Shown: in pieces, positions 5,187 to 20,977 of the stretch
How the letters are laid out: every line of letters begins with the position of its first letter
Position numbering within the stretch: the first letter of the stretch is position 1
From: Deinococcus radiodurans R1 = ATCC 13939 = DSM 20539
GTDB lineage: Bacteria > Deinococcota > Deinococci > Deinococcales > Deinococcaceae
Length of the DNA stretch: 32,000 bases
Reading direction: 5' to 3'
Assembly (NCBI RefSeq): GCF_000008565.1
Contig: NC_001264.1
Span: 157,418 to 189,417, forward strand
The notes under the pieces: model-generated
The model's database searches: none
Told to the model about the DNA's origin: nothing
Seen by the model: only the letters and a program-made list of their open reading frames with translations
Translations under genes and position numbers: made by a program

Positions 5187-5402
5187 GCTTTCGCGCCCCC
5201 ACGTCCTCTTCCTGCGCTCCTGTGCCGGGAAGGGGATTTGCTTTGCCGCCCAAACCGCCCACAAATCCGACCCGACCGACATTTTGTTTACCCACCGGGG
5301 GTATTCTTCTCCGGTTGTGACACAGCAGAGGCCCGCAGGCCGGGAAAGGCCGGGCCGCCCTGCACGTCCCTTGCCGTTTCGCCTGCTCCCCGAGGTTTCC
5401 CC

Positions 5403-5989
5403 ATGACTGACCTGCTCGACCTGCTCCGTTCGCCCTGGCCCTGGTGGGTGGGCGGCCCCCTGATCGGCCTGACGGTGCCGCTGCTGCTGTGGCTGGGCAA
5501 CAAATCGTTCGGCATTTCCAGCAACCTGCGCCACCTGTGCGCCATTGCGCTGCCCGAGGCGGCCAAGCCGCCATTTTTCCGCTATGACTGGCGGGCCGAA
5601 GGGTGGAATCTGGCCTTCGCGCTGGGGTTGGTGCTGGCCGGGGCAGTGTTCGGCGGCCTGCTCGCCAACCCGCAGCCCACGCACCTGAGCGCCGCCGGAG
5701 TCCAAAGTCTGCACGACCTCGGCGTGGCGGTGCGGCCCGGTCTGGTGCCCGCTGAACTCACTGACCTGCGTCATCCCGGCGTGTGGGGGCTGCTCGCCCT
5801 GAGTGGCCTGCTCATCGGCTTCGGCACCCGCTATGCGGGCGGCTGCACCAGCGGTCACGCGATTACCGGGCTCAGCACCCTGCAACTTCCGAGCCTGATT
5901 GCCACCGTCTCCTTTTTCGCCGGGGGCATCTTCAGCGCCAACGTGCTGCTGCCGCTCCTGTTCGGCGCCCTGGGTATCGGAGGGCTGAA

Positions 5990-5993
<4 letters not shown>
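5403..5993 (+). CDS. YeeE/YedE-family membrane protein (sulfur-compound transport family), first half-size subunit
   Basis: ATG at 5403 ([23 protein letters not shown]...) follows a GAGG Shine-Dalgarno. The hallmark [14 protein letters not shown] motif and several TM segments are present. Confidence 0.8.
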
Positions 5994-6463
<470 letters not shown>

Positions 6464-6503
6464 GCTGTGGCCCACAGCATTTCCCTTTCCCCCGGAGGAC
6501 CCC

Positions 6504-6932
6504 ATGAGTGACATCCTGACCTGTACCCACTGCCAGGCCAAAAACCGCGTCGGTGCTGTGCCCGCCGGACAGGTGCCGAGCTGCGCCCGCTGCGGCGCCG
6601 CGCTGCCCTGGCTGCACGACGGCACCGACGCGACCTTCGAGCAGGACCTTCAGACAAGCGTGCCGGTGCTGGTGGACTTCTGGGCGCCGTGGTGCGGCCC
6701 CTGCCGCGTGATGGGGCCGGTTCTCGAAGACCTCGCCCGCGACCTGCCCGGCAAGGTGCGGGTGGTGAAGGTCAACGTGGACGAGAACCCGCGCACCGCC
6801 GCCCGTTTCGAGGTCCGCAGCATTCCCACGCTGCTGATGTTCAAGGACGGGGAAGAGGTGGACCAGATGGTCGGCGTAACCCAGAAGGCGGCGCTGCGGG
6901 CGCGGGTGGAACACCTCAACCAGCTTTCCTGA
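6504..6932 (+). CDS. trxC: Thioredoxin with N-terminal zinc-finger extension (Trx2/TrxC type)
   Basis: The N-terminus carries CTHC...CARC (two CxxC pairs). The thioredoxin core has a WCGPC active site. GGAGGA Shine-Dalgarno precedes the ATG at 6504. Confidence 0.9.
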   Translation: MSDILTCTHCQAKNRVGAVPAGQVPSCARCGAALPWLHDGTDATFEQDLQTSVPVLVDFWAPWCGPCRVMGPVLEDLARDLPGKVRVVKVNVDENPRTAARFEVRSIPTLLMFKDGEEVDQMVGVTQKAALRARVEHLNQLS

Positions 6933-6977: not shown

Positions 6978-6998
6978 GGTTATGCTATTTACATAACC
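6978..6998. promoter_or_regulatory. Perfect palindrome GGTTATG-N7-CATAACC. Candidate repressor operator that resembles the Deinococcus RDRM (DdrO site) as I recall it.
   Basis: Read directly: ggttatgctatttacataacc, with 7-bp arms that are exact reverse complements. It lies in an AT-rich patch 62 nt upstream of the ATG at 7060 and overlaps the predicted -35. Confidence 0.5.
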
Positions 6999-7016
6999 AC
7001 TCCTCGCGTGTAGACT
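6988..7016 (+). promoter_or_regulatory. Sigma-70-like promoter for the 7060-12994 operon
   Basis: TTTACA (6988-6993), a 17-nt spacer, then TAGACT (7011-7016). GAGG Shine-Dalgarno is at 7051-7054, before the ATG at 7060. Confidence 0.4.
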
Positions 7017-7059: not shown

Positions 7060-7464
7060 ATGCTGGTTGAAACCAAGATTGTAGGCCGCCGCACGCCGTT
7101 CGAGCGCAAACCCTTCGACCTGCCCGCTGGGCCGCACACCCTGCGGAGCCTGCTTACCCACCTCGTCGCCGGGGAAGTCGCCGCCTATGAAGAGCGGCAG
7201 GGCAGCGTCGGCGTGCTGCGGGTACTGACCGAGCAGGAACTTTTGAGTGGCGCCGCCGCCGGCAAAATCCAACTGGCACCGCAGGAGCGGGGCGGCGTGG
7301 TCACGCCTGAGGAGGCGACCCGCACCGCCCTGCGCGCCTTTGAAGACGGGCTGTACTACGTCTTCGTGGACGACGAGCAGGTGGAAACGCTTGACGAAAC
7401 CGTTGCCCTACAGCCCGACAGCACCCTGTTGCTGCTGCGCCTGACCGCGCTGGCGGGGGGCTGA
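7060..7464 (+). CDS. Hypothetical 134-aa protein with ubiquitin-like (beta-grasp-like) N- and C-terminal segments, ending ...LRLTALAGG-stop
   Basis: Third codon positions are G/C-rich and a Shine-Dalgarno is present. The stop lies 2 nt before the next ATG. The C-terminus YVFVDDEQVETLDETVALQPDSTLLLLRLTALAGG compares with the ubiquitin tail [34 protein letters not shown]. The N-terminus MLVETKIVGRRT compares with [12 protein letters not shown]. Confidence 0.7.
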   Translation: MLVETKIVGRRTPFERKPFDLPAGPHTLRSLLTHLVAGEVAAYEERQGSVGVLRVLTEQELLSGAAAGKIQLAPQERGGVVTPEEATRTALRAFEDGLYYVFVDDEQVETLDETVALQPDSTLLLLRLTALAGG

Positions 7465-7466
7465 GC

Positions 7467-10400
7467 ATGGCCGGGGGTCTGGACCTCACCGAGTATTTCC
7501 GCCAGTACGAGCAGCCCTGGCAACCCGACTTCGCGGCCCGTCTCGCCGCCGCGCCCGAGTCGGTGCAGGGCTGGGTGCAGGCGCGGCTGACCGAGGGAAA
7601 AACCTGGCCCGCGATGCAAGAGCAGGCGCGGGTCTGGAGTGAGGCTTTACTCAGCGCTTCCCCGGAGGAATTGCGGGCGCTCACCGGCGTTCTGTTTCCT
7701 CAGTTTCCTGAGCTGGCCGCCCGCGCCTACCGCACGGTGCTCGAAACGCGGCCCTACACGCGGGGGCTGCTGCGCCGCGCCTTTCGCGCCGGGGCGCAGG
7801 GAAACGACGCCGAGCGCGGTGGGGCCGCCGCCGGGTGGCTGTGGAGCCTCTGGACGCTGCTGCGGGCCTACCCGGAAGGCGTGCTGTGGGTGGCGGAGGC
7901 GGCGGGGCTGTTCGAGGCTTATGAGAGCCGCCTGCTGGGGCCACTGCTCGCGCAGGCGGTGAGTGAGGGAGATGCGGGCGTCCTGCAACTGCTCAAGGAC
8001 ACCGCCAGCACCCAGCACCCCGTCGCCCGGATGGGGCGGCACGTGCCGCAGGCGCTCCTCGGCAGCGACGACCCGCAGGCGTGGGAGTATGCCCGGCAGT
8101 TGCTGCTCGCGGCGCAGCGGCAAGAGGGGCTGCGACAAGTCATCCTCGAAACGGTGGACGAGGCACACCCCGGCGCTTTTCCCCTTTTCCTGAACACGGT
8201 GCTCGATGAAGACCTGCTGCGCTTTGCTGCGGTGCTGCGGGCCGCCTGCGTGTGGTACGGCCTGGGCTACGACGTGACCGACATGAAAAAGGTGCGGCAG
8301 TTGCTCACGCTGGCGCGGGGCTATCTCGAAGACGCGGCGCAGGTGACACAGGCCGTGAGCAGCGGCAGCGGCGAGGAAGTCTATATGGCGCTCTACACGC
8401 TGGGGATGCGCGACGCGGACGAGGCCGCCGCGCTCGCCCGGCCCCTGCTCACCGACCCCGACCCCGCGCGCCGCATGGCCGCCGCGCAGTTTCTGAGCGC
8501 CGCGCACTTGCTCCAGTCCGCTGACCTCGCCCGCCTCCTTGCCGATGAAGACCTGCGGTTGGGCGCGGTGGCATTGGCCCCGGGCTCGTACCCTTCCGGC
8601 TGGGTTACCCCTGAGAACACGAACCCCCTGACCTTCGACGCGCTGCGGGCCTACGCCGAGCGTCTCTCCCGCGCGCCCCGGCACGACCCGCTGCTCTTTC
8701 CCTGGCTGGGCGACGTTCCCGACCGCGCCAGCGTGACGGATGGGCTGGTCGCCGTGCTGCCTCCCGACGAACTCGGGCGCATCGTGCCGCACCTGGGCGA
8801 GCTGTCCCCCGGCGGCAAAAGCTTTCTGCTCGCGCGGCTCCGGGCGCTGGCCGAGCGGAGGGACAGGGGAGAGACGGTTCGCCTTCCCGACGATACACGC
8901 TTCATCCTGCTGACCCTGCTGCAAGACCGCAGCAGCGCCACGTCGCAGGAAGCGGTGACGACCCTCACGGCGCTGAGGCTGGAGCTGTCGGGCGAGGAGC
9001 GCACGCTCGCCCACGACCTGCTGCGGCGCAAATCCGCCGACCTGCGCCGGGGACTGATTCGCCTGCTCGCGGCGGACCCCGCCCAGGGCGCGGCGAGCGC
9101 GGCGGCGCTGCTGGCCCTCAAAAGCACCGAGCAGCGGCAGGCGGGATTGCAACTCCTTGAAGAAGTCGGCGGCCTGCCCCCCGCCGATTTTCAGCCCAAA
9201 AACGTTTCGGAAGCGACGCTCCTCGCCAAACTCGCCGCGCCGGAGAGCCAGCTCACCCTGAACAACGGCCTGGGCCTCTTCGACCCGCAGGACCTCAGCC
9301 AGCCCCAGCCGCTGCGCCCGTCTGACAACGACTTCGTGGCCGACGTGGAGCGCGGCGCGGAGCTCCTTCGTTCGCTCGACGACTTTCTGGCCGAGCACGC
9401 CGAAACCCCGGTCTCGGGCACCGGCTGGGACGGCGAAACGACGGAGCTGCTCACGAATCTGTCGCCCTACTGGCTGAGTGCGAGAGTGGGGCGCGACATG
9501 CCGCTCGCCGGGCTCTGGAACGGCTGGTGGGCGGCGCGGGCCGGCGCGCAGGAAGGCGACCTCACCCGGATGGCCTGGGCGCTGGGGCACCGGGTCGACC
9601 GCACTGAGACGACCGAAACCGAGCTGCTTCAGGAATTGAGCGAGGGCGGGGACACCTCCCCGGAACAGGAACACGCCCGCCTCCTGCGCCAGCGCCTGAT
9701 TCAGCAGACCCTGCACGCCGTTCTGGGGCCACCCGTTCCGCTCAAGCTCGACCGGGCGCCGCTTATCGAGCCGGTGCTGGACTACCTGTCCACGCAAGAG
9801 CTGACCGAAGTGGACACCGGGATGCAACTGGACGCCTGGGAAAGCGCGCTGAGCCGCCTGCCAAGCGATACGCCCCTGCTGAAACTGGGGGAGGAGCGGT
9901 GGCAGGTCGAAGACCCGCGCTCGCTGCTCGGTCCCCTGGTTCTGCAAGGCATCGAGCTGGCGGCCCTGCCCGCCGAGCAGTTCCAGCAGCTCTGGCGAGT
10001 TCAGTTGCACCACCATGCGGCCTTTCCAAACCTGCCCCGCCTGCGGATGTCCGCCGAGATGCTCATTCTCGCCGAGCGCGCGGGGCTGGCGAACCGCGCC
10101 GACCTGCTCGACCTGCTCATCGGGGAGCGGAACGCCGGCATGGGGGACGTGTATTACGGCAATTCCTTCGACGACTTGCGGAGCTATACCCGGCGCAAGC
10201 TGTCCGACCTCCTGCCGACCTCGCCCGCCTGGATGCAGGCCGTGAACGACGCCCGTGACCGCGTGCTCGCCGTCGAGCTGGAGCGCGGCGACCTCGAAAC
10301 GCCCGCCACCCTGCCCGCGCTGGCGCTGCAAAGCGTGAGCGGCGCGGCCCGGACGCTGCGGCTGCTGGCCGGCCTGGGTAAACAACCGCTCCGGCGCGGG

Positions 10401-12347
10401 TACAGCGGCCACAGTCTGGGCAAGGACGCGACCTTCAGTCACCTGCTGCGGGTGTCGTTTCCTGACCCCGGCGACACCGCCCAGACTGTGCGCGAGCAGG
10501 CGAAAACCCTGGGGCTGAGCGACCCCCGGCTGCTTGACCTCGCCATGTTCGCGCCGCAGTGGGCCGAGCTCGTCAGCGGCGCGGTGGGCTGGAAGGGGCT
10601 GGCGGACGGCGTGTACTGGCTGCACGCCCACACCCGCGACTCTCAGTGGAGCGTGCCGACGGACATCCGCGAGGCCTGGGAAGCCGAAATCAGCGAGCGC
10701 ACGCCGCTGCGCCCCACCGACCTCACCGAGGGTGCCGTGGACGTGGCGTGGTTCCGGCGGATGCACCGCGCCCTGGGCCGCGCGCACTTTCAGACCTTGC
10801 TCGGCGCGGCCAAATATGCGTCGTCCAGTGGCGGGCACAAACGCGCCGAACTGTTCGCCGCGGCCATTCTGGGCGAGGTGCCGGAAGACACCCTGCTCGC
10901 CCGCATCCGCGAAAAACGCAACCAGGACGCGGTGCGGGCGCTGGGGCTGCTGCCGCTGCCGAAGGGCAAAAAGGCCGCGCAGGTGCTGGAGGCGCGTTAC
11001 CTCACCCTCGTCACCTTTCGCCGCGAGACCCGGCAGTTCGGCGCGCAGCGGCAGGCCAGCGAGCGCCTCGCCGCCGACATCGGCCTACAAAACCTCGCCC
11101 GCAGCGCCGGATACGCCGACCCCCAGCGCCTGATGTGGGCAATGGAAGCGCGCATGGCCCCCGACTGGCAGCAGGTGGTGACCGCCGATGGGGTGACCGT
11201 GAGCGCCGAACTCGATGGGGCGGGCGCAGCGACCCTGCTCGTCCGGCGCGGCGAGAAGCCCCTCAAGACCCTGCCGCCCGCACTCAGAAAAAACCCCGAG
11301 GTGCTCGCGCTGCGTGAGGCCGTCAAAGACCTCGCCGCCACCCGCACCCGCATGCGCGCGGCCCTCGAAGAAGCGATGGTGCGCGGCGACCACTTCACCC
11401 CCCAGGAACTCCGCGACCTCGCGCGGCACCCGATCATCGCCCCGATGCTCGGGAGTCTGGTGTGGGTGCTCGGCGAAGGGCCGCTGGGCTTCTGGGAAGA
11501 CGAAAGCCTGCGGACGCTGACCGGAGAACTCCCGCTGGGCGACCAGGCCCTACGCCTCGCACACCCGCACGACCTTTTTACTGGCGGGCAGTGGCGCGAG
11601 TATCAGGCGGCAGTGCTTAAGCGCCAGCTCACCCAGCCCTTCAAGCAGGTCTTCCGCGAGTATTACCCGCTCACCGCCGCCGAAAAAACCGCCCAGCGCA
11701 GCGTCCGCTACGAGGGCCACCACGTTCAGCCTGTCAAGGCCGCCGCACTCCTCAAGGCGCGGGGCTGGGTCAGCATTTACGACGAAGGCACCCGCAAGAC
11801 CTTCCACGACGAGGGCCTCAGTGTCTGGATTGACGATGCGCTTAGCGCCGGCACCCCGAACGAGGTGGAAGGCCTGCCGCTGCACGCCGCCTATTTCATG
11901 CGGGTGGGCGAGGCGCAGCCCCTGCCACTGGCCGCCGTTCCGCCCCGGCTGTTCAGCCAGGTCTTGCGCGACCTCGACCTCGTGGTGAGTGTGGCCCACG
12001 TGGGCGGCGTGGACCCCGAAGCCTCGCAGAGCACGGTGGAAATGCGCGAAAGCCTGCTGCGCGAGACTCTGCGCCTGCTGAAGCTGAAAAACGTGCGCCT
12101 CGAACACGGACACGCCCTGATCGACGGTCACCACAGCCGCTACAGCGTGCACCTCGGCAGCGGCACCGTTCACCGCCAGCCGGGGGGCTTCCTGTGCATC
12201 GTGCCGGTTCACAACCAGGCGCAGGGCCGCCTCTTTCTTCCCTTCGCCGACCCCGACCCGCGTACGGCGGAGGTGGTAAGCAAGGTGCTGCTGCTCGCCG
12301 AAGACCGCAAGATTCAGGACCCGACGATTCTGGAACAGTTGCGCTGA
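7467..12347 (+). CDS. Giant (1626 aa) alpha-helical repeat protein. The C-terminal ~600 aa resemble the DUF4132 / MolR-YehI family. Function unknown.
   Basis: Uninterrupted 4.9-kb ORF with strong G/C third-position bias. HEAT-like repeats occur (e.g. LLTDPDPARRMAAAQFL). The C-terminal motifs APQWAELV, TPLRPTDLTEGAVDVAWF, GGHKRAEL, NQDAVRALGLLPL, RQFGAQRQASE, QPFKQVFREYY, LRDLDLVVSVAH and YSVHLGSG match my memory of DUF4132-family proteins. No search was possible. Confidence 0.85.
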   Translation: MAGGLDLTEYFRQYEQPWQPDFAARLAAAPESVQGWVQARLTEGKTWPAMQEQARVWSEALLSASPEELRALTGVLFPQFPELAARAYRTVLETRPYTRGLLRRAFRAGAQGNDAERGGAAAGWLWSLWTLLRAYPEGVLWVAEAAGLFEAYESRLLGPLLAQAVSEGDAGVLQLLKDTASTQHPVARMGRHVPQALLGSDDPQAWEYARQLLLAAQRQEGLRQVILETVDEAHPGAFPLFLNTVLDEDLLRFAAVLRAACVWYGLGYDVTDMKKVRQLLTLARGYLEDAAQVTQAVSSGSGEEVYMALYTLGMRDADEAAALARPLLTDPDPARRMAAAQFLSAAHLLQSADLARLLADEDLRLGAVALAPGSYPSGWVTPENTNPLTFDALRAYAERLSRAPRHDPLLFPWLGDVPDRASVTDGLVAVLPPDELGRIVPHLGELSPGGKSFLLARLRALAERRDRGETVRLPDDTRFILLTLLQDRSSATSQEAVTTLTALRLELSGEERTLAHDLLRRKSADLRRGLIRLLAADPAQGAASAAALLALKSTEQRQAGLQLLEEVGGLPPADFQPKNVSEATLLAKLAAPESQLTLNNGLGLFDPQDLSQPQPLRPSDNDFVADVERGAELLRSLDDFLAEHAETPVSGTGWDGETTELLTNLSPYWLSARVGRDMPLAGLWNGWWAARAGAQEGDLTRMAWALGHRVDRTETTETELLQELSEGGDTSPEQEHARLLRQRLIQQTLHAVLGPPVPLKLDRAPLIEPVLDYLSTQELTEVDTGMQLDAWESALSRLPSDTPLLKLGEERWQVEDPRSLLGPLVLQGIELAALPAEQFQQLWRVQLHHHAAFPNLPRLRMSAEMLILAERAGLANRADLLDLLIGERNAGMGDVYYGNSFDDLRSYTRRKLSDLLPTSPAWMQAVNDARDRVLAVELERGDLETPATLPALALQSVSGAARTLRLLAGLGKQPLRRGYSGHSLGKDATFSHLLRVSFPDPGDTAQTVREQAKTLGLSDPRLLDLAMFAPQWAELVSGAVGWKGLADGVYWLHAHTRDSQWSVPTDIREAWEAEISERTPLRPTDLTEGAVDVAWFRRMHRALGRAHFQTLLGAAKYASSSGGHKRAELFAAAILGEVPEDTLLARIREKRNQDAVRALGLLPLPKGKKAAQVLEARYLTLVTFRRETRQFGAQRQASERLAADIGLQNLARSAGYADPQRLMWAMEARMAPDWQQVVTADGVTVSAELDGAGAATLLVRRGEKPLKTLPPALRKNPEVLALREAVKDLAATRTRMRAALEEAMVRGDHFTPQELRDLARHPIIAPMLGSLVWVLGEGPLGFWEDESLRTLTGELPLGDQALRLAHPHDLFTGGQWREYQAAVLKRQLTQPFKQVFREYYPLTAAEKTAQRSVRYEGHHVQPVKAAALLKARGWVSIYDEGTRKTFHDEGLSVWIDDALSAGTPNEVEGLPLHAAYFMRVGEAQPLPLAAVPPRLFSQVLRDLDLVVSVAHVGGVDPEASQSTVEMRESLLRETLRLLKLKNVRLEHGHALIDGHHSRYSVHLGSGTVHRQPGGFLCIVPVHNQAQGRLFLPFADPDPRTAEVVSKVLLLAEDRKIQDPTILEQLR

Positions 12348-13237: not shown

Positions 13238-14038
13238 CTAACCGGCGGCCCGTTCCCGCCGTCCGGCAACACTGCGGACCAGCAGCAGCAATCCGAACGC
13301 GACGAGCACCATCACCGCGCTCAAGACCAGTGCGGGCGCGAGGTCGGATTCCAGCGCGGCGTAGATGGCCAGCGTGACCGTGCGGGTTTGGCCTTGCAGC
13401 GACCCGGCAAACAGGATGGTGGCGCCGAATTCGCCCAGCGCCCGCGCCCAGGCAAGGACCAGCCCCTCCAGCAAAAAGGGAAACGCCAGTGGCCAGGTGA
13501 TCAGCCGGAAGACCTGCCCGTCACTCGCGCCATCGGTGCGGGCAGCGTCCTCGGCGTCGCGGTTCACCGCCTGAAACCCGGCGCGGGCGGTCCGCAGGTA
13601 AAAAGGCGCCGACACGAACAGTTGCGCGAGCACCACCGCCGCCGTGGAAAAGGCAAGCTGAATCCCCGCGAGTTCGAGCGCCGGCCCCAGCAGCCCGCCG
13701 CGCCCGAAGGTAAGCAGCAGTCCAACCCCCGCCACCACCGGCGGCAACACGATGGGGAGGTCAAGGAGCGTTTCGAGGACGGGCTTGCCCGGAAAATCGA
13801 AGCGCGCCAGCAGCCACGCAACCGGCGTGACCAACGTGACGGTGAGCAGCAGCGTGATTCCGGTGGTCAGCAGACTGACGCGCAGGGCGTCCCCCACCGC
13901 CCGGCTCGCCAGCGCCGGCCAGAACGACGCCGTCAGCCCCCGCGTGAGCAGCACCAGCACCGGCACGACCAGAAACAGCGTCAGCGCCCCCCCCAGCAGC
14001 AGGGCCAGCGGAGGCGCGGAGCGGGGCGGGCGACTCAT
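13238..14038 (-). CDS. modB: Molybdate ABC transporter permease ModB
   Basis: 266-aa multi-TM protein with the ABC permease loop (ARTDGASDGQVFRLITWPLA) and ModB-like sequence. It lies immediately downstream of modA. Confidence 0.9.
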   Translation of the reverse strand: MSRPPRSAPPLALLLGGALTLFLVVPVLVLLTRGLTASFWPALASRAVGDALRVSLLTTGITLLLTVTLVTPVAWLLARFDFPGKPVLETLLDLPIVLPPVVAGVGLLLTFGRGGLLGPALELAGIQLAFSTAAVVLAQLFVSAPFYLRTARAGFQAVNRDAEDAARTDGASDGQVFRLITWPLAFPFLLEGLVLAWARALGEFGATILFAGSLQGQTRTVTLAIYAALESDLAPALVLSAVMVLVAFGLLLLVRSVAGRRERAAG

Positions 14039-14099
14039 ACGGTTCTGGACTTTAATTCACCTCGGCCAGAAAAGCATCAGCCGAAGCTTCTGACCTGCC

Positions 14100-14855
14100 T
14101 CAGCGCGGGCTCTGGAAGCCCCATTTACGCAGAATCTTCTGGCCTTCGATCGAACGGACGTACGCGATGAAGGCTTGCGCGGCGGCAGCGTTGCGCGACG
14201 CCTTGAGCGTGCCGATAGGGTACCTCGCGGTCTGGTTGAAGCGCGTCGGCAGCGCGACCACTCGCACGTCGTTTTTCAGGGCGGGCGTCACGTCGCTGCG
14301 GTAGACCACGGCGGCGTCGGCCTCGCCCAGCCCCACCTTCAGTGCCACCTGCCGCACGTTGGGCTCCTCGCTCACCACGTTTTTCATAAACCGCGCCGAA
14401 AAGTCCTTGCCGTAGGTGCCCGCCTGATCAATGGCCCCCAGCATCCGCCGGGTGTAGTCCCCGACCGGCACGGCCTTGTCGGCAATCACGATTCGGACCC
14501 CCGGCGCCGTCAGGTCACGCAGGGTGCTGACTTTGCGGCTATTGCTCGGCACGATGACGGCGAGTTTGTTGCTGACGAACGGCTGCCCGGCCACGACCAA
14601 TCCGGCCTTGACCAGCGGGTCGAACTGGGCATTGTTCGCGCTGGCGTACACGTCGGCCCGCGCCCCATTTTCGAGTTGGGTACGCAGCGCCTGCGACCCG
14701 GCGAACTGAAAAACGGTCTTGTTGCCGGTGCGGGCGTCGAACTGCTGGCCGAGTTCGGTAAAGGCGTCAGTCAGCGAGGCGGCGGCAAACACGGTGAGCT
14801 GAGCGGCGGAGGCGGTGCTGCCCAGCAGCAGGGTGGTCAGGACAATCAAGCGCAT
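14100..14855 (-). CDS. modA: Molybdate ABC transporter substrate-binding protein ModA
   Basis: Signal peptide MRLIVLTTLLLGSTASAAQ followed by LTVFAAASLTDAF, YASAN and ADAAVVY, which are typical ModA motifs. GAGGAGG Shine-Dalgarno is present. Confidence 0.9.
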   Translation of the reverse strand: MRLIVLTTLLLGSTASAAQLTVFAAASLTDAFTELGQQFDARTGNKTVFQFAGSQALRTQLENGARADVYASANNAQFDPLVKAGLVVAGQPFVSNKLAVIVPSNSRKVSTLRDLTAPGVRIVIADKAVPVGDYTRRMLGAIDQAGTYGKDFSARFMKNVVSEEPNVRQVALKVGLGEADAAVVYRSDVTPALKNDVRVVALPTRFNQTARYPIGTLKASRNAAAAQAFIAYVRSIEGQKILRKWGFQSPR

Positions 14856-17682: not shown

Positions 17683-17877
17683 TTACCCTCCGCCGATGAC
17701 CCGCACGATTTCCACCACGTCCGCCTCCTCCAGCTCGCGGTCGGGGGCCTGACCGCCGGGGTAAAAGTCGTCGTTCACAGCGATGGCGACGCGCTCAGGC
17801 CGGATGTCCAGTTCGCGCAGCAGGCCGTGCAGGGTGAGGCCGGGTACGCAGGGGCGGGGTTCTCCGTTGACTTGCAT
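17683..17877 (-). CDS. thiS: Sulfur carrier protein ThiS
   Basis: 64 aa, [10 protein letters not shown]...[10 protein letters not shown]-stop. It has the ThiS length, the C-terminal GG and the position between thiE and thiG. The longer ORF 17683..18303 is rejected. Confidence 0.85.
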
Positions 17878-20846: not shown

Positions 20847-20866
20847 AGAACAAAAGTCTCTGCGCC

Positions 20867-20969
20867 CGTCACACTCCCTCCGCTGGTGCTAACCAGTTCA
20901 GGTTCATAGGGTTAGGCCCGAGTTGCCCTCTCAGCCTCCGGCCCATATGCGGAGGCACCCCTGTTGACG
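20867..20969 (-). promoter_or_regulatory. TPP (thiamine pyrophosphate) riboswitch aptamer
   Basis: The minus strand reads CGTCAACAGGGGTGCCTCCGCATATGGGCCGGAGGCTGAGAGGGCAACTCGGGCCTAACCCTATGAACCTGAACTGGTTAGCACCAGCGGAGGGAGTGTGACG. It contains the conserved GGGGTGC, CTGAGA, ACCC..TGAACCTGA.CTGG.TA..ACCAGCG.AGGGA blocks and a closing P1 helix. Confidence 0.92.
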
Positions 20970-20977
20970 ATGCCCCG

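Follow-up and report, generated by a model that had tools for sequence, protein, structure and literature searches.

What does Deinococcus radiodurans do with a DNA-damage-induced protein of 1626 amino acids (aa) that has no assigned function, and why does its gene start two nucleotides (nt) behind the gene of a small protein ending in two glycines? The two genes, DR_A0165 (the small protein) and DR_A0166 (the giant), lie in a stretch of 32,000 nt from chromosome II of strain R1 (NC_001264.1, positions 157,418 to 189,417 of the forward strand). This whole stretch is called the window, and positions are counted from its first letter. The giant is DR_A0166 by exact sequence match in D. radiodurans records. 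The answer proposed here is that DR_A0165 and DR_A0166 form an obligate complex in the DNA-damage response, controlled by DdrO and IrrE, which modulates repair or recovery. The probability of this reading is put at about 0.45.

The small gene is preceded, 64 nt from its start, by a radiation/desiccation response motif (RDRM), the operator of DdrO. The sigma-70-like site that this motif overlaps (Table 1) is the only promoter-like site found between positions 6400 and 13400. The 20-nt sequence containing the RDRM is identical to the published DRA0165 site at -83, which carries a DdrO signal in chromatin immunoprecipitation sequencing and is positive in RNA sequencing, with strong derepression on depletion of DdrO; on Western blots, DRA0166-V5 is induced by mitomycin C in the wild type and not in a delta-irrE strain (Eugenie et al. 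2021, PMC8533742). This shows the locus to be the DdrO/IrrE-regulated drA0165-drA0166 operon of D. radiodurans, with damage-induced co-expression of both genes. It also shows how the switch works: DdrO binds the RDRM over the -35 element until DNA damage leads IrrE to cleave DdrO, and the operon is derepressed. Gamma irradiation and H2O2 both raise the level of the DR_A0165 peptide, known as SEP068184 (Zhou et al. 2022, PMC9650054). Both genes are among the most strongly DdrO-controlled ones of this model radioresistant bacterium. Five Deinococcaceae have an RDRM 57-88 nt before the small gene, with one mismatch or none: D. radiodurans, D. ficus, D. psychrotolerans and two metagenome-assembled genomes of the family.

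How general is the pair? Orthologs were scanned in one genome per species, which gave 80 long-type loci from more than 10 phyla, with upstream DNA available in 72 of them. Homologs of the small protein were found with a hidden Markov model (HMM) of the 134-aa protein. Of these 72 loci, 70 have such a homolog immediately before the giant and on its strand (E 1e-19 to 1e-63), and in about 22 of the long-type loci the stop of the small gene and the start of the giant are within 4 nt of each other or overlap. In D. radiodurans the two intervening nucleotides are GC, followed by the ATG of the giant. This shows pairing of the DR_A0165-DR_A0166 type to be strict and ancient across phyla. An earlier note on this DNA, made from the letters alone, had drawn attention to the GG-ending open reading frame (ORF) just upstream, and the comparison of neighbourhoods bears this out. 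It had also considered that the giant might be split or pseudogenised in relatives; in all the complete orthologous loci examined the gene is intact, at about 1560-1850 aa. Two statements in PMC9650054, that the small gene has no RDRM and that it is confined to Deinococcus, are contradicted by the RDRM in the window and by the homologs in other phyla, and stand corrected.

Around the giant, the neighbour clusters of the loci hold no gene other than that of the small protein that is conserved beyond genus level. E1/ThiF, E2 and JAB genes were not found among the same-strand neighbours of 39 loci or in the conserved neighbour clusters. A cluster of ATP-binding cassette (ABC) transporter genes recurs in 19 loci, and was rejected as a partner since it belongs to a promiscuous family and its positions vary.

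A second subfamily says which part of the giant the small protein belongs with. These proteins of about 830 aa, from Alphaproteobacteria, have an unrelated N-terminus followed by the DUF4132 and DUF7737 domains, and are about 28% identical to the C-terminal module of the D. radiodurans protein. In 7/7 such loci, a GG-ending homolog of the small protein (131-146 aa) is encoded directly upstream, with a 1-4 nt overlap. Because the short subfamily retains both, the small protein is tied to DUF4132-DUF7737 and not to the HEAT region. In one Kiloniellales locus (L092, 1077-6517) a single small gene is followed by two tandem paralogs of about 830 aa with DUF4132-DUF7737.

In the giant itself, three Pfam families are collinear and all above threshold, and they keep the same order in orthologs from more than 10 phyla: DUF5724 (PF18991; residues 84-1226, E 4e-179, 598.6 bits), DUF4132 (E 7e-45, 153.6 bits against a cutoff of 27) and DUF7737 (E 7e-36, 122.8 bits). 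A profile of 32 orthologs matches alphaRep and HEAT proteins of the PDB at residues ~295-570 (E 1e-21 to 1e-8), and Pfam HEAT_2 is matched by orthologs. PDB sequence searches with the giant alone, and with profiles of the giant and the small protein, gave HEAT/alphaRep matches only, and the NCBIfam profiles gave no match.

The protein is rich in Leu (15.7%), Ala (12.9%) and Arg (8.7%). It has exactly two Cys, at 261 and 1577, and its sequence holds no HExxH or CxxC. The G+C content at third codon positions (GC3) is 0.86, against 0.81-0.90 in the neighbouring genes; as this falls within their range, the gene is host-like. On all this the earlier note was sound: an uninterrupted frame, host-like codon use, HEAT-like repeats, a significant DUF4132, two cysteines and no HExxH, and eleven quoted peptides that are all present, between residues 324 and 1559. 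A Walker-A-like string, ARLTEGKT at residue 39, was discarded as a nucleotide site as it sits in a non-conserved stretch. An antisense ORF of 1063 aa (7647-10838) is a high-GC artefact. One D. radiodurans record (P0102) lists a 'DUF4132 domain-containing protein' of 277 aa that shares 93% identity with the C-terminus of the giant. This entry probably reflects a frameshift or a fragmented gene call of an older assembly, not a real pseudogene.

Conservation along the giant has two peaks. One is at residues ~200-260; with 23 columns at least 90% conserved among residues 200-300, it is the sole peak outside the C-terminal third. The other runs from residue 1000 to 1626, with 47 columns at least 90% conserved between 1500 and 1600 alone. 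Identity over the last 400 aa is 50-57% in orthologs from Cyanobacteria, Planctomycetota, Chloroflexota, Bacteroidota and Gemmatimonadota. The earlier note saw no catalytic signatures here. That is right as far as textbook motifs go, and the ortholog alignment likewise yields neither an invariant Cys nor a conserved nucleotide-binding motif. It does not do justice to some 60 invariant residues in the last ~620 aa, many of them charged or polar: H1366, D1369, K1393, R1397, E1398, Y1400, E1406, R1414, D1502, D1504, H1511, D1516, E1518, R1527, E1533, N1542, Y1559, H1562, S1565 and R1588. Such a density is typical of an active site or of an interface with multiple partners.

An AlphaFold2 (AF2) model of the last 400 aa is confident, with a predicted local distance difference test score (pLDDT) of 84.8, except in two strongly conserved loops, GVDPEAS and RGRLFLPFADDDP. 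Both loops may depend on a partner for folding. Only one column of the giant tracks the type of tail of its partner (GG versus GSYW), and it is uninformative.

In its AF2 model (pLDDT 76.5) the small partner opens with two strands and a long helix; a poorly predicted insertion separates these from a second helix and three C-terminal strands, and the GG tail is disordered. Foldseek puts MoaD on top, and most of its top 50 are MoaD, ubiquitin or ThiS. These matches are non-significant, with a best E of 0.09 and template modelling scores (normalised to the target) of 0.45-0.57. UniRef labels two members 'MoaD/ThiS family'. On the models, the DR_A0165 family is probably ubiquitin-like (Ubl). The Ubl label of the earlier note thus keeps a medium-confidence beta-grasp model and a weak Foldseek signal, and lacks a profile link to ThiS, MoaD or ubiquitin.

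The tail is more constant than its last letter suggests. G133 is invariant, and the protein ends there or 1-4 residues beyond. Most lineages have G as the final residue, and Gemmatimonadota and some others have A there; in Bacteroidota and Acidobacteria the protein terminates in G-(S/G)-Y-W. GG is the end not only in D. radiodurans and the short-type loci, but also in 126/146 top representatives.

The family profile matches 2125 representative clusters (914 with E <= 1e-10). Of the members newly retrieved from these, the best 146 are all stand-alone proteins of 100-221 aa, aligned up to their last residue, with no fusions among them. Long upstream ORFs that appear fused to the small protein (L025, L073, L050, L027) have no Pfam domains, and were set aside as high-GC ORF over-extension.

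DR_A0165 was earlier annotated as the 83-aa 'SEP068184' (P0076). Since the first 51 residues of the 134-aa protein are conserved across phyla, the shorter form appears to be an N-terminally truncated annotation, and 134 aa the real product.

Is there a link to DNA beyond the operator? Ties to DNA repair do recur. In one Gemmataceae giant (L029) a WGR domain is fused at the C-terminus, and in three Planctomycetes loci a gene for an ATP-dependent DNA ligase with a WGR domain adjoins the giant. Such a minimal ligase-WGR fusion is unusual in itself. Three Flavobacterium loci carry a WGR-DUF6493-DUF7824-DUF7825 protein that may correspond to DR2173 of D. radiodurans, a WGR protein co-regulated by DdrO (PMC8533742). 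In a short-type locus (L093, 1-6481), the translesion and SOS mutagenesis cassette imuB-dnaE2 lies 64 nt upstream of the pair on the same strand. A photolyase-domain gene is upstream of the pair in D. psychrotolerans, and an Endo_dU gene is downstream of the giant in D. radiodurans. E. coli molR, which combines WGR with DUF4132, has been listed among SOS-box genes.

Operators upstream of the pair differ by lineage. In Cyanobacteria, 5/9 loci have a LexA-box-like site (RGTACNNNDGTWCB, no more than one mismatch) in the 200 nt upstream, where about 0.04 per locus would be expected by chance. Three of these sites are at -30 to -32, and there two more loci have versions with two mismatches. In the other loci scanned, the upstream DNA has neither E. 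coli-type nor Cheo boxes.

Upstream of the small gene, two Acidobacteria loci (L063, ~5600-5690; L068, ~40-120) have in common an 18-bp perfect palindrome, TGTTTCA-N4-TGAAACA, with a TATAAT box directly after it. By its sequence, it may be a repressor operator. Two loci of Trueperaceae, which also belong to Deinococcota, share a palindrome CTTAAAATTTAAG beside GGTATAAT, ~40 nt upstream of the small gene (L008, L009). It is not an RDRM, and may represent a different operator in that family.

Put together, a mechanism could look like this. Translational coupling would fix the ratio of the products, and so provide for an obligate DR_A0165-DR_A0166 complex. The flexible Gly-Gly tail of the small subunit would be held by the DUF4132-linker-DUF7737 module, as the MoaD tail is in MoaE, with the DUF5724/HEAT solenoid serving as docking platform. 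The complex would then act at or close to DNA that is broken or being replicated, probably with WGR-domain proteins (DNA-end sensors), and would tune repair or recovery instead of being a core repair enzyme.

A fair number of observations weigh against this proposal. Deletion of DR_A0165 raises survival of H2O2 and has little effect after gamma or UV, and the main text on the DR_A0165 pull-down does not report DR_A0166 (PMC9650054). The same work finds that over-expression of DR_A0165 from a plasmid sensitises cells. A simple protective repair role is argued against because the deletion increases H2O2 survival; what this suggests is a modulatory or restraining role of the pair rather than core repair. 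None of the 27 Flavobacterium and Chryseobacterium loci has either of the two published Bacteroidetes SOS motifs upstream, and the alphaproteobacterial LexA box is found in 0/7 short-type loci. Since these operator searches are negative, damage control of the pair is lineage-specific.

The structural side has its own difficulties. The beta-grasp assignment is weak, given the model confidence and Foldseek values above. None of 43 small-protein members has a ThiS or ubiquitin Pfam match at E <= 10, a PDB profile search with the family is negative, and hhalign against MoaD and ubiquitin gives a probability below 1%, which is a weak test as it used single approximate template sequences. Nor is a free GG a general requirement, as in about 30 of the 75 loci sampled the small protein has GA or G-S/G-Y-W at its end. 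Finally, the model of the C-terminal 400 aa of the giant has no significant Foldseek match in PDB or BFVD. The activity of this module can therefore not be read from its structure, which offers no functional lead.

Other accounts of the same facts are conceivable. The tail invites one in which the pair is a self-contained Ubl conjugation system: DUF4132-DUF7737 would activate the C-terminal Gly of the small protein with neither a Rossmann E1 nor a catalytic Cys, and the small protein would be ligated to targets or to itself after damage, with G-S/G-Y-W tails first trimmed by the giant. The GG/GA end, the invariant penultimate Gly and the LRL..L.GG context, which is like the LRLRGG of ubiquitin, would fit, and the short extensions beyond the Gly in some lineages resemble those of Ubl precursors; yet the YW extension is itself conserved in Bacteroidota, unlike typical pro-peptides. 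The ~60 invariant residues of the partner module, many charged or polar, could supply the chemistry, and the strict linkage of two genes, with no need for others, suits a self-contained system. Against this, the neighbours examined include no ThiF/E1, E2 or JAB gene, the giant lacks the invariant Cys and the conserved nucleotide-binding motif, Foldseek finds in the C-terminal model no structural likeness to PafA/Dop, ATP-grasp or E1 folds, and the published work on DR_A0165 reports no conjugates (PMC9650054). This account is unlikely. If true, such E1/E2-independent modification would be a bacterial analogue of eukaryotic ubiquitin/SUMO damage signalling, spread over more than 10 phyla. It is likewise doubtful that the chemistry of the cassette is categorically new.

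The survival data allow for something else: a growth-arrest, toxic or conflict module, triggered by damage or stress, with which the pair would restrain recovery or kill heavily damaged cells, much like SOS-induced toxins or abortive defence. This seems quite improbable for a family with 50-57% identity across phyla, unusual for fast-evolving conflict genes, with no PADLOC match, no phage copy found, and neighbours that are mostly housekeeping genes, vary by locus and form no defence-island pattern. It does account for the H2O2 survival of the deletion and the sensitisation by plasmid expression (PMC9650054). The patchy distribution is consistent with horizontal transfer, some copies are on megaplasmids, the neighbours in a few loci include AbiEii-like ATPase, Uma2 or polyvalent-kinase genes, and the E. 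coli paralogs adjoin a MoxR-VWA-SWIM cluster. Highly improbable is a sulfur-carrier pathway in thiol/redox metabolism, with the small protein as a ThiS/MoaD-type thiocarboxylate carrier and the giant as its sulfur acceptor. The GG terminus, the two UniRef names and MoaD as top Foldseek match would suit a carrier, were it not that thiocarboxylate chemistry rules out GA and GSYW termini and that the family shows no profile relation to PF02597. Genes for YeeE/YedE sulfur transporters and TrxC precede the operon in D. radiodurans, and Trx1 is pulled down with DR_A0165, the deletion of which alters antioxidant capacity (PMC9650054). Other Deinococcus and all other phyla lack these Trx and YeeE neighbours, however, the neighbours examined include no MoeB/ThiF or rhodanese gene, and moeA and moeB are not co-regulated with the operon in D. 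radiodurans (PMC8533742).

Table 1 Features in the window, and WGR-domain genes beside the pair in other genomes (positions with an L label are those of that locus).
Feature	Position	Strand	Remarks
RDRM palindrome TTATGCTATTTACATAA, DdrO operator	6980-6996		Only exact match to TTMYGYNNTDNRCRKAA in window
Sigma-70-like promoter: TTTACA, 17-nt spacer, TAGACT	6988-7016	+	Consensus match; -35 overlaps RDRM
DR_A0165, 134-aa small protein	7060-7464	+	Predicted beta-grasp (ubiquitin/MoaD-like), ends ...RLTALAGG
DR_A0166, giant, DUF5724 + DUF4132 + DUF7737	7467-12347	+	Uninterrupted ORF, 1626 aa
N-terminal conserved patch	8055-8255 (residues ~197-263)	+	LLLAAQRQEGLRQ.ILE..DEAHP
HEAT/alphaRep-type repeat array	8364-9176, approximate (residues ~300-570)	+	Profile match to PDB alphaRep proteins
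DUF4132 domain (PF13569)	11256-11768 (residues 1264-1434)	+	Ends with invariant QPFKQvFRE.Y..T..E ... RY.G motif
Conserved linker domain	11769-12035 (residues 1435-1523)	+	RDLDLVVSVAH.GGvDPEaS
DUF7737 domain (PF24879)	12036-12341 (residues 1524-1625)	+	YsvHLGS, PGG, RGRlFLPFaDdDP..AE..SK
DR_A0167, Endo_dU/DUF99, 194 aa	12410-12994	+	63 nt downstream of giant; Pfam E 2e-54
Ligase-WGR gene	L015 10989-12701		DNA_ligase_A_M + OB_2 + C-terminal WGR
Ligase-WGR gene	L038 11808-13538		DNA_ligase_A_M + OB_2 + C-terminal WGR
Ligase-WGR gene	L066 11277-12605	-	DNA_ligase_A_M + OB_2 + C-terminal WGR
1034-aa WGR-DUF6493-DUF7824-DUF7825 protein	L061 11445-14549		Directly downstream of cassette, Flavobacterium
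1034-aa WGR-DUF6493-DUF7824-DUF7825 protein	L062 11292-14396		Directly downstream of cassette, Flavobacterium
1034-aa WGR-DUF6493-DUF7824-DUF7825 protein	L070 11646-14750		Directly downstream of cassette, Flavobacterium

Work on this locus is not new. The D. radiodurans gene and its regulation have been published, and its three domains have entries as DUFs. Eugenie et al. (2021, PMC8533742) describe the same locus as an operon of the RDR regulon, with the same RDRM 20-mer, gene order (Trx1-A0165-A0166-A0167) and protein sequence. That paper treats A0165 and A0166 as unknowns and repeats a 'molybdopterin' guess, and does not mention a Ubl-like A0165, DUF5724 or DUF7737, or the conservation of the pair across phyla. 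Zhou et al. (2022, PMC9650054) studied the same gene as DR_A0165 under the name SEP068184, in the 83-aa form where the conserved family product has 134 aa, and call it a Deinococcus-specific negative regulator of oxidative-stress resistance.

Literature searches on DUF5724, DUF7737, DUF6493 and YehI returned nothing relevant. The cassette, the short subfamily, the Ubl-like partner and the ties to WGR, ligase and imuB-dnaE2 are undescribed in the literature searched, and may be described elsewhere. With the pair recognised, three Pfam DUFs and an 'orphan peptide' become one testable system, which could reveal a new type of damage-response complex or new Ubl chemistry.

E. coli YehI resembles the giant in DUF4132, including a PF(R/K)Q motif, with 24% identity over 185 aa, but like MolR it has neither DUF5724 nor DUF7737. 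The earlier note had called the C-terminal module MolR/YehI-like, which is correct for the ~170 aa of DUF4132 and not for the remainder. As only DUF4132 aligns, the giant is a subfamily distinct from MolR/YehI. E. coli MolR has an N-terminal WGR, which the D. radiodurans giant does not; the WGR and the SOS-box listing of MolR do parallel the damage induction and WGR ties of the giant family. The small-protein HMM finds no homolog in the E. coli yeh locus, and YehK, considered as an Ubl equivalent, does not match it either. The molybdate role in the name MolR would be historical, and the giant would not be a molybdate regulator, which removes the molybdate annotation as a guide.

With MoaD-MoaE, ThiS-ThiG/ThiF and ubiquitin, the pair has in common a predicted beta-grasp, a flexible C-terminal Gly-Gly and a coupled, adjoining gene for a large partner. 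Unlike those proteins, the DR_A0165 family has a helical insertion of ~40 residues and GA and GSYW termini, and it shows no profile relation to them. The giant is unrelated to MoaE, ThiG or E1, and the context is DNA damage, not cofactor synthesis. The cassette would then combine a beta-grasp small subunit and a large partner of its own, in this case in the setting of DNA damage.

Bil, Bub/6E and CBASS Cap2/Cap3 operons also encode a GG-ended Ubl, together with its processing machinery. They have recognisable E1, E2 and JAB domains and catalytic cysteines, and are found in defence islands. DR_A0165-DR_A0166 resembles them in having a GG-ended small protein in an operon, and differs in that no E1, E2, JAB, catalytic Cys or defence-island setting was found.

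In D. radiodurans the gene order is pstB-phoU, two YeeE/YedE genes, trxC (DR_A0164), DR_A0165, DR_A0166 and DR_A0167. D. ficus, D. psychrotolerans and D. sp. D7000 keep only the small-giant pair. DR_A0167 is possibly co-transcribed with the pair in D. radiodurans. The earlier note had linked the giant to this DUF99 protein, a link that does not stand, as Endo_dU follows the giant in this species only. Endo_dU/DUF99 and thioredoxin were both rejected as components of the system because they adjoin the pair only there.

The two YeeE/YedE sulfur-transport genes and the zinc-ribbon TrxC gene occupy 5238-6932, on the same strand before the operon, an arrangement specific to D. radiodurans. This context probably explains the reported hypothesis around the Trx1 pull-down. 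Just past DR_A0167, at ~13238-14855 on the minus strand, is a molybdate ABC transporter (modA and permease) that is not conserved in other Deinococcus; its proximity to a family named after MolR is a coincidence. Further on, the thiamine operon includes a genuine 64-aa ThiS gene (~17683-17877, minus strand) that is unrelated to the 134-aa protein, and thiC is preceded by a thiamine pyrophosphate (TPP) riboswitch (Rfam RF00059, 58.6 bits) at 20857-20972, also on the minus strand.

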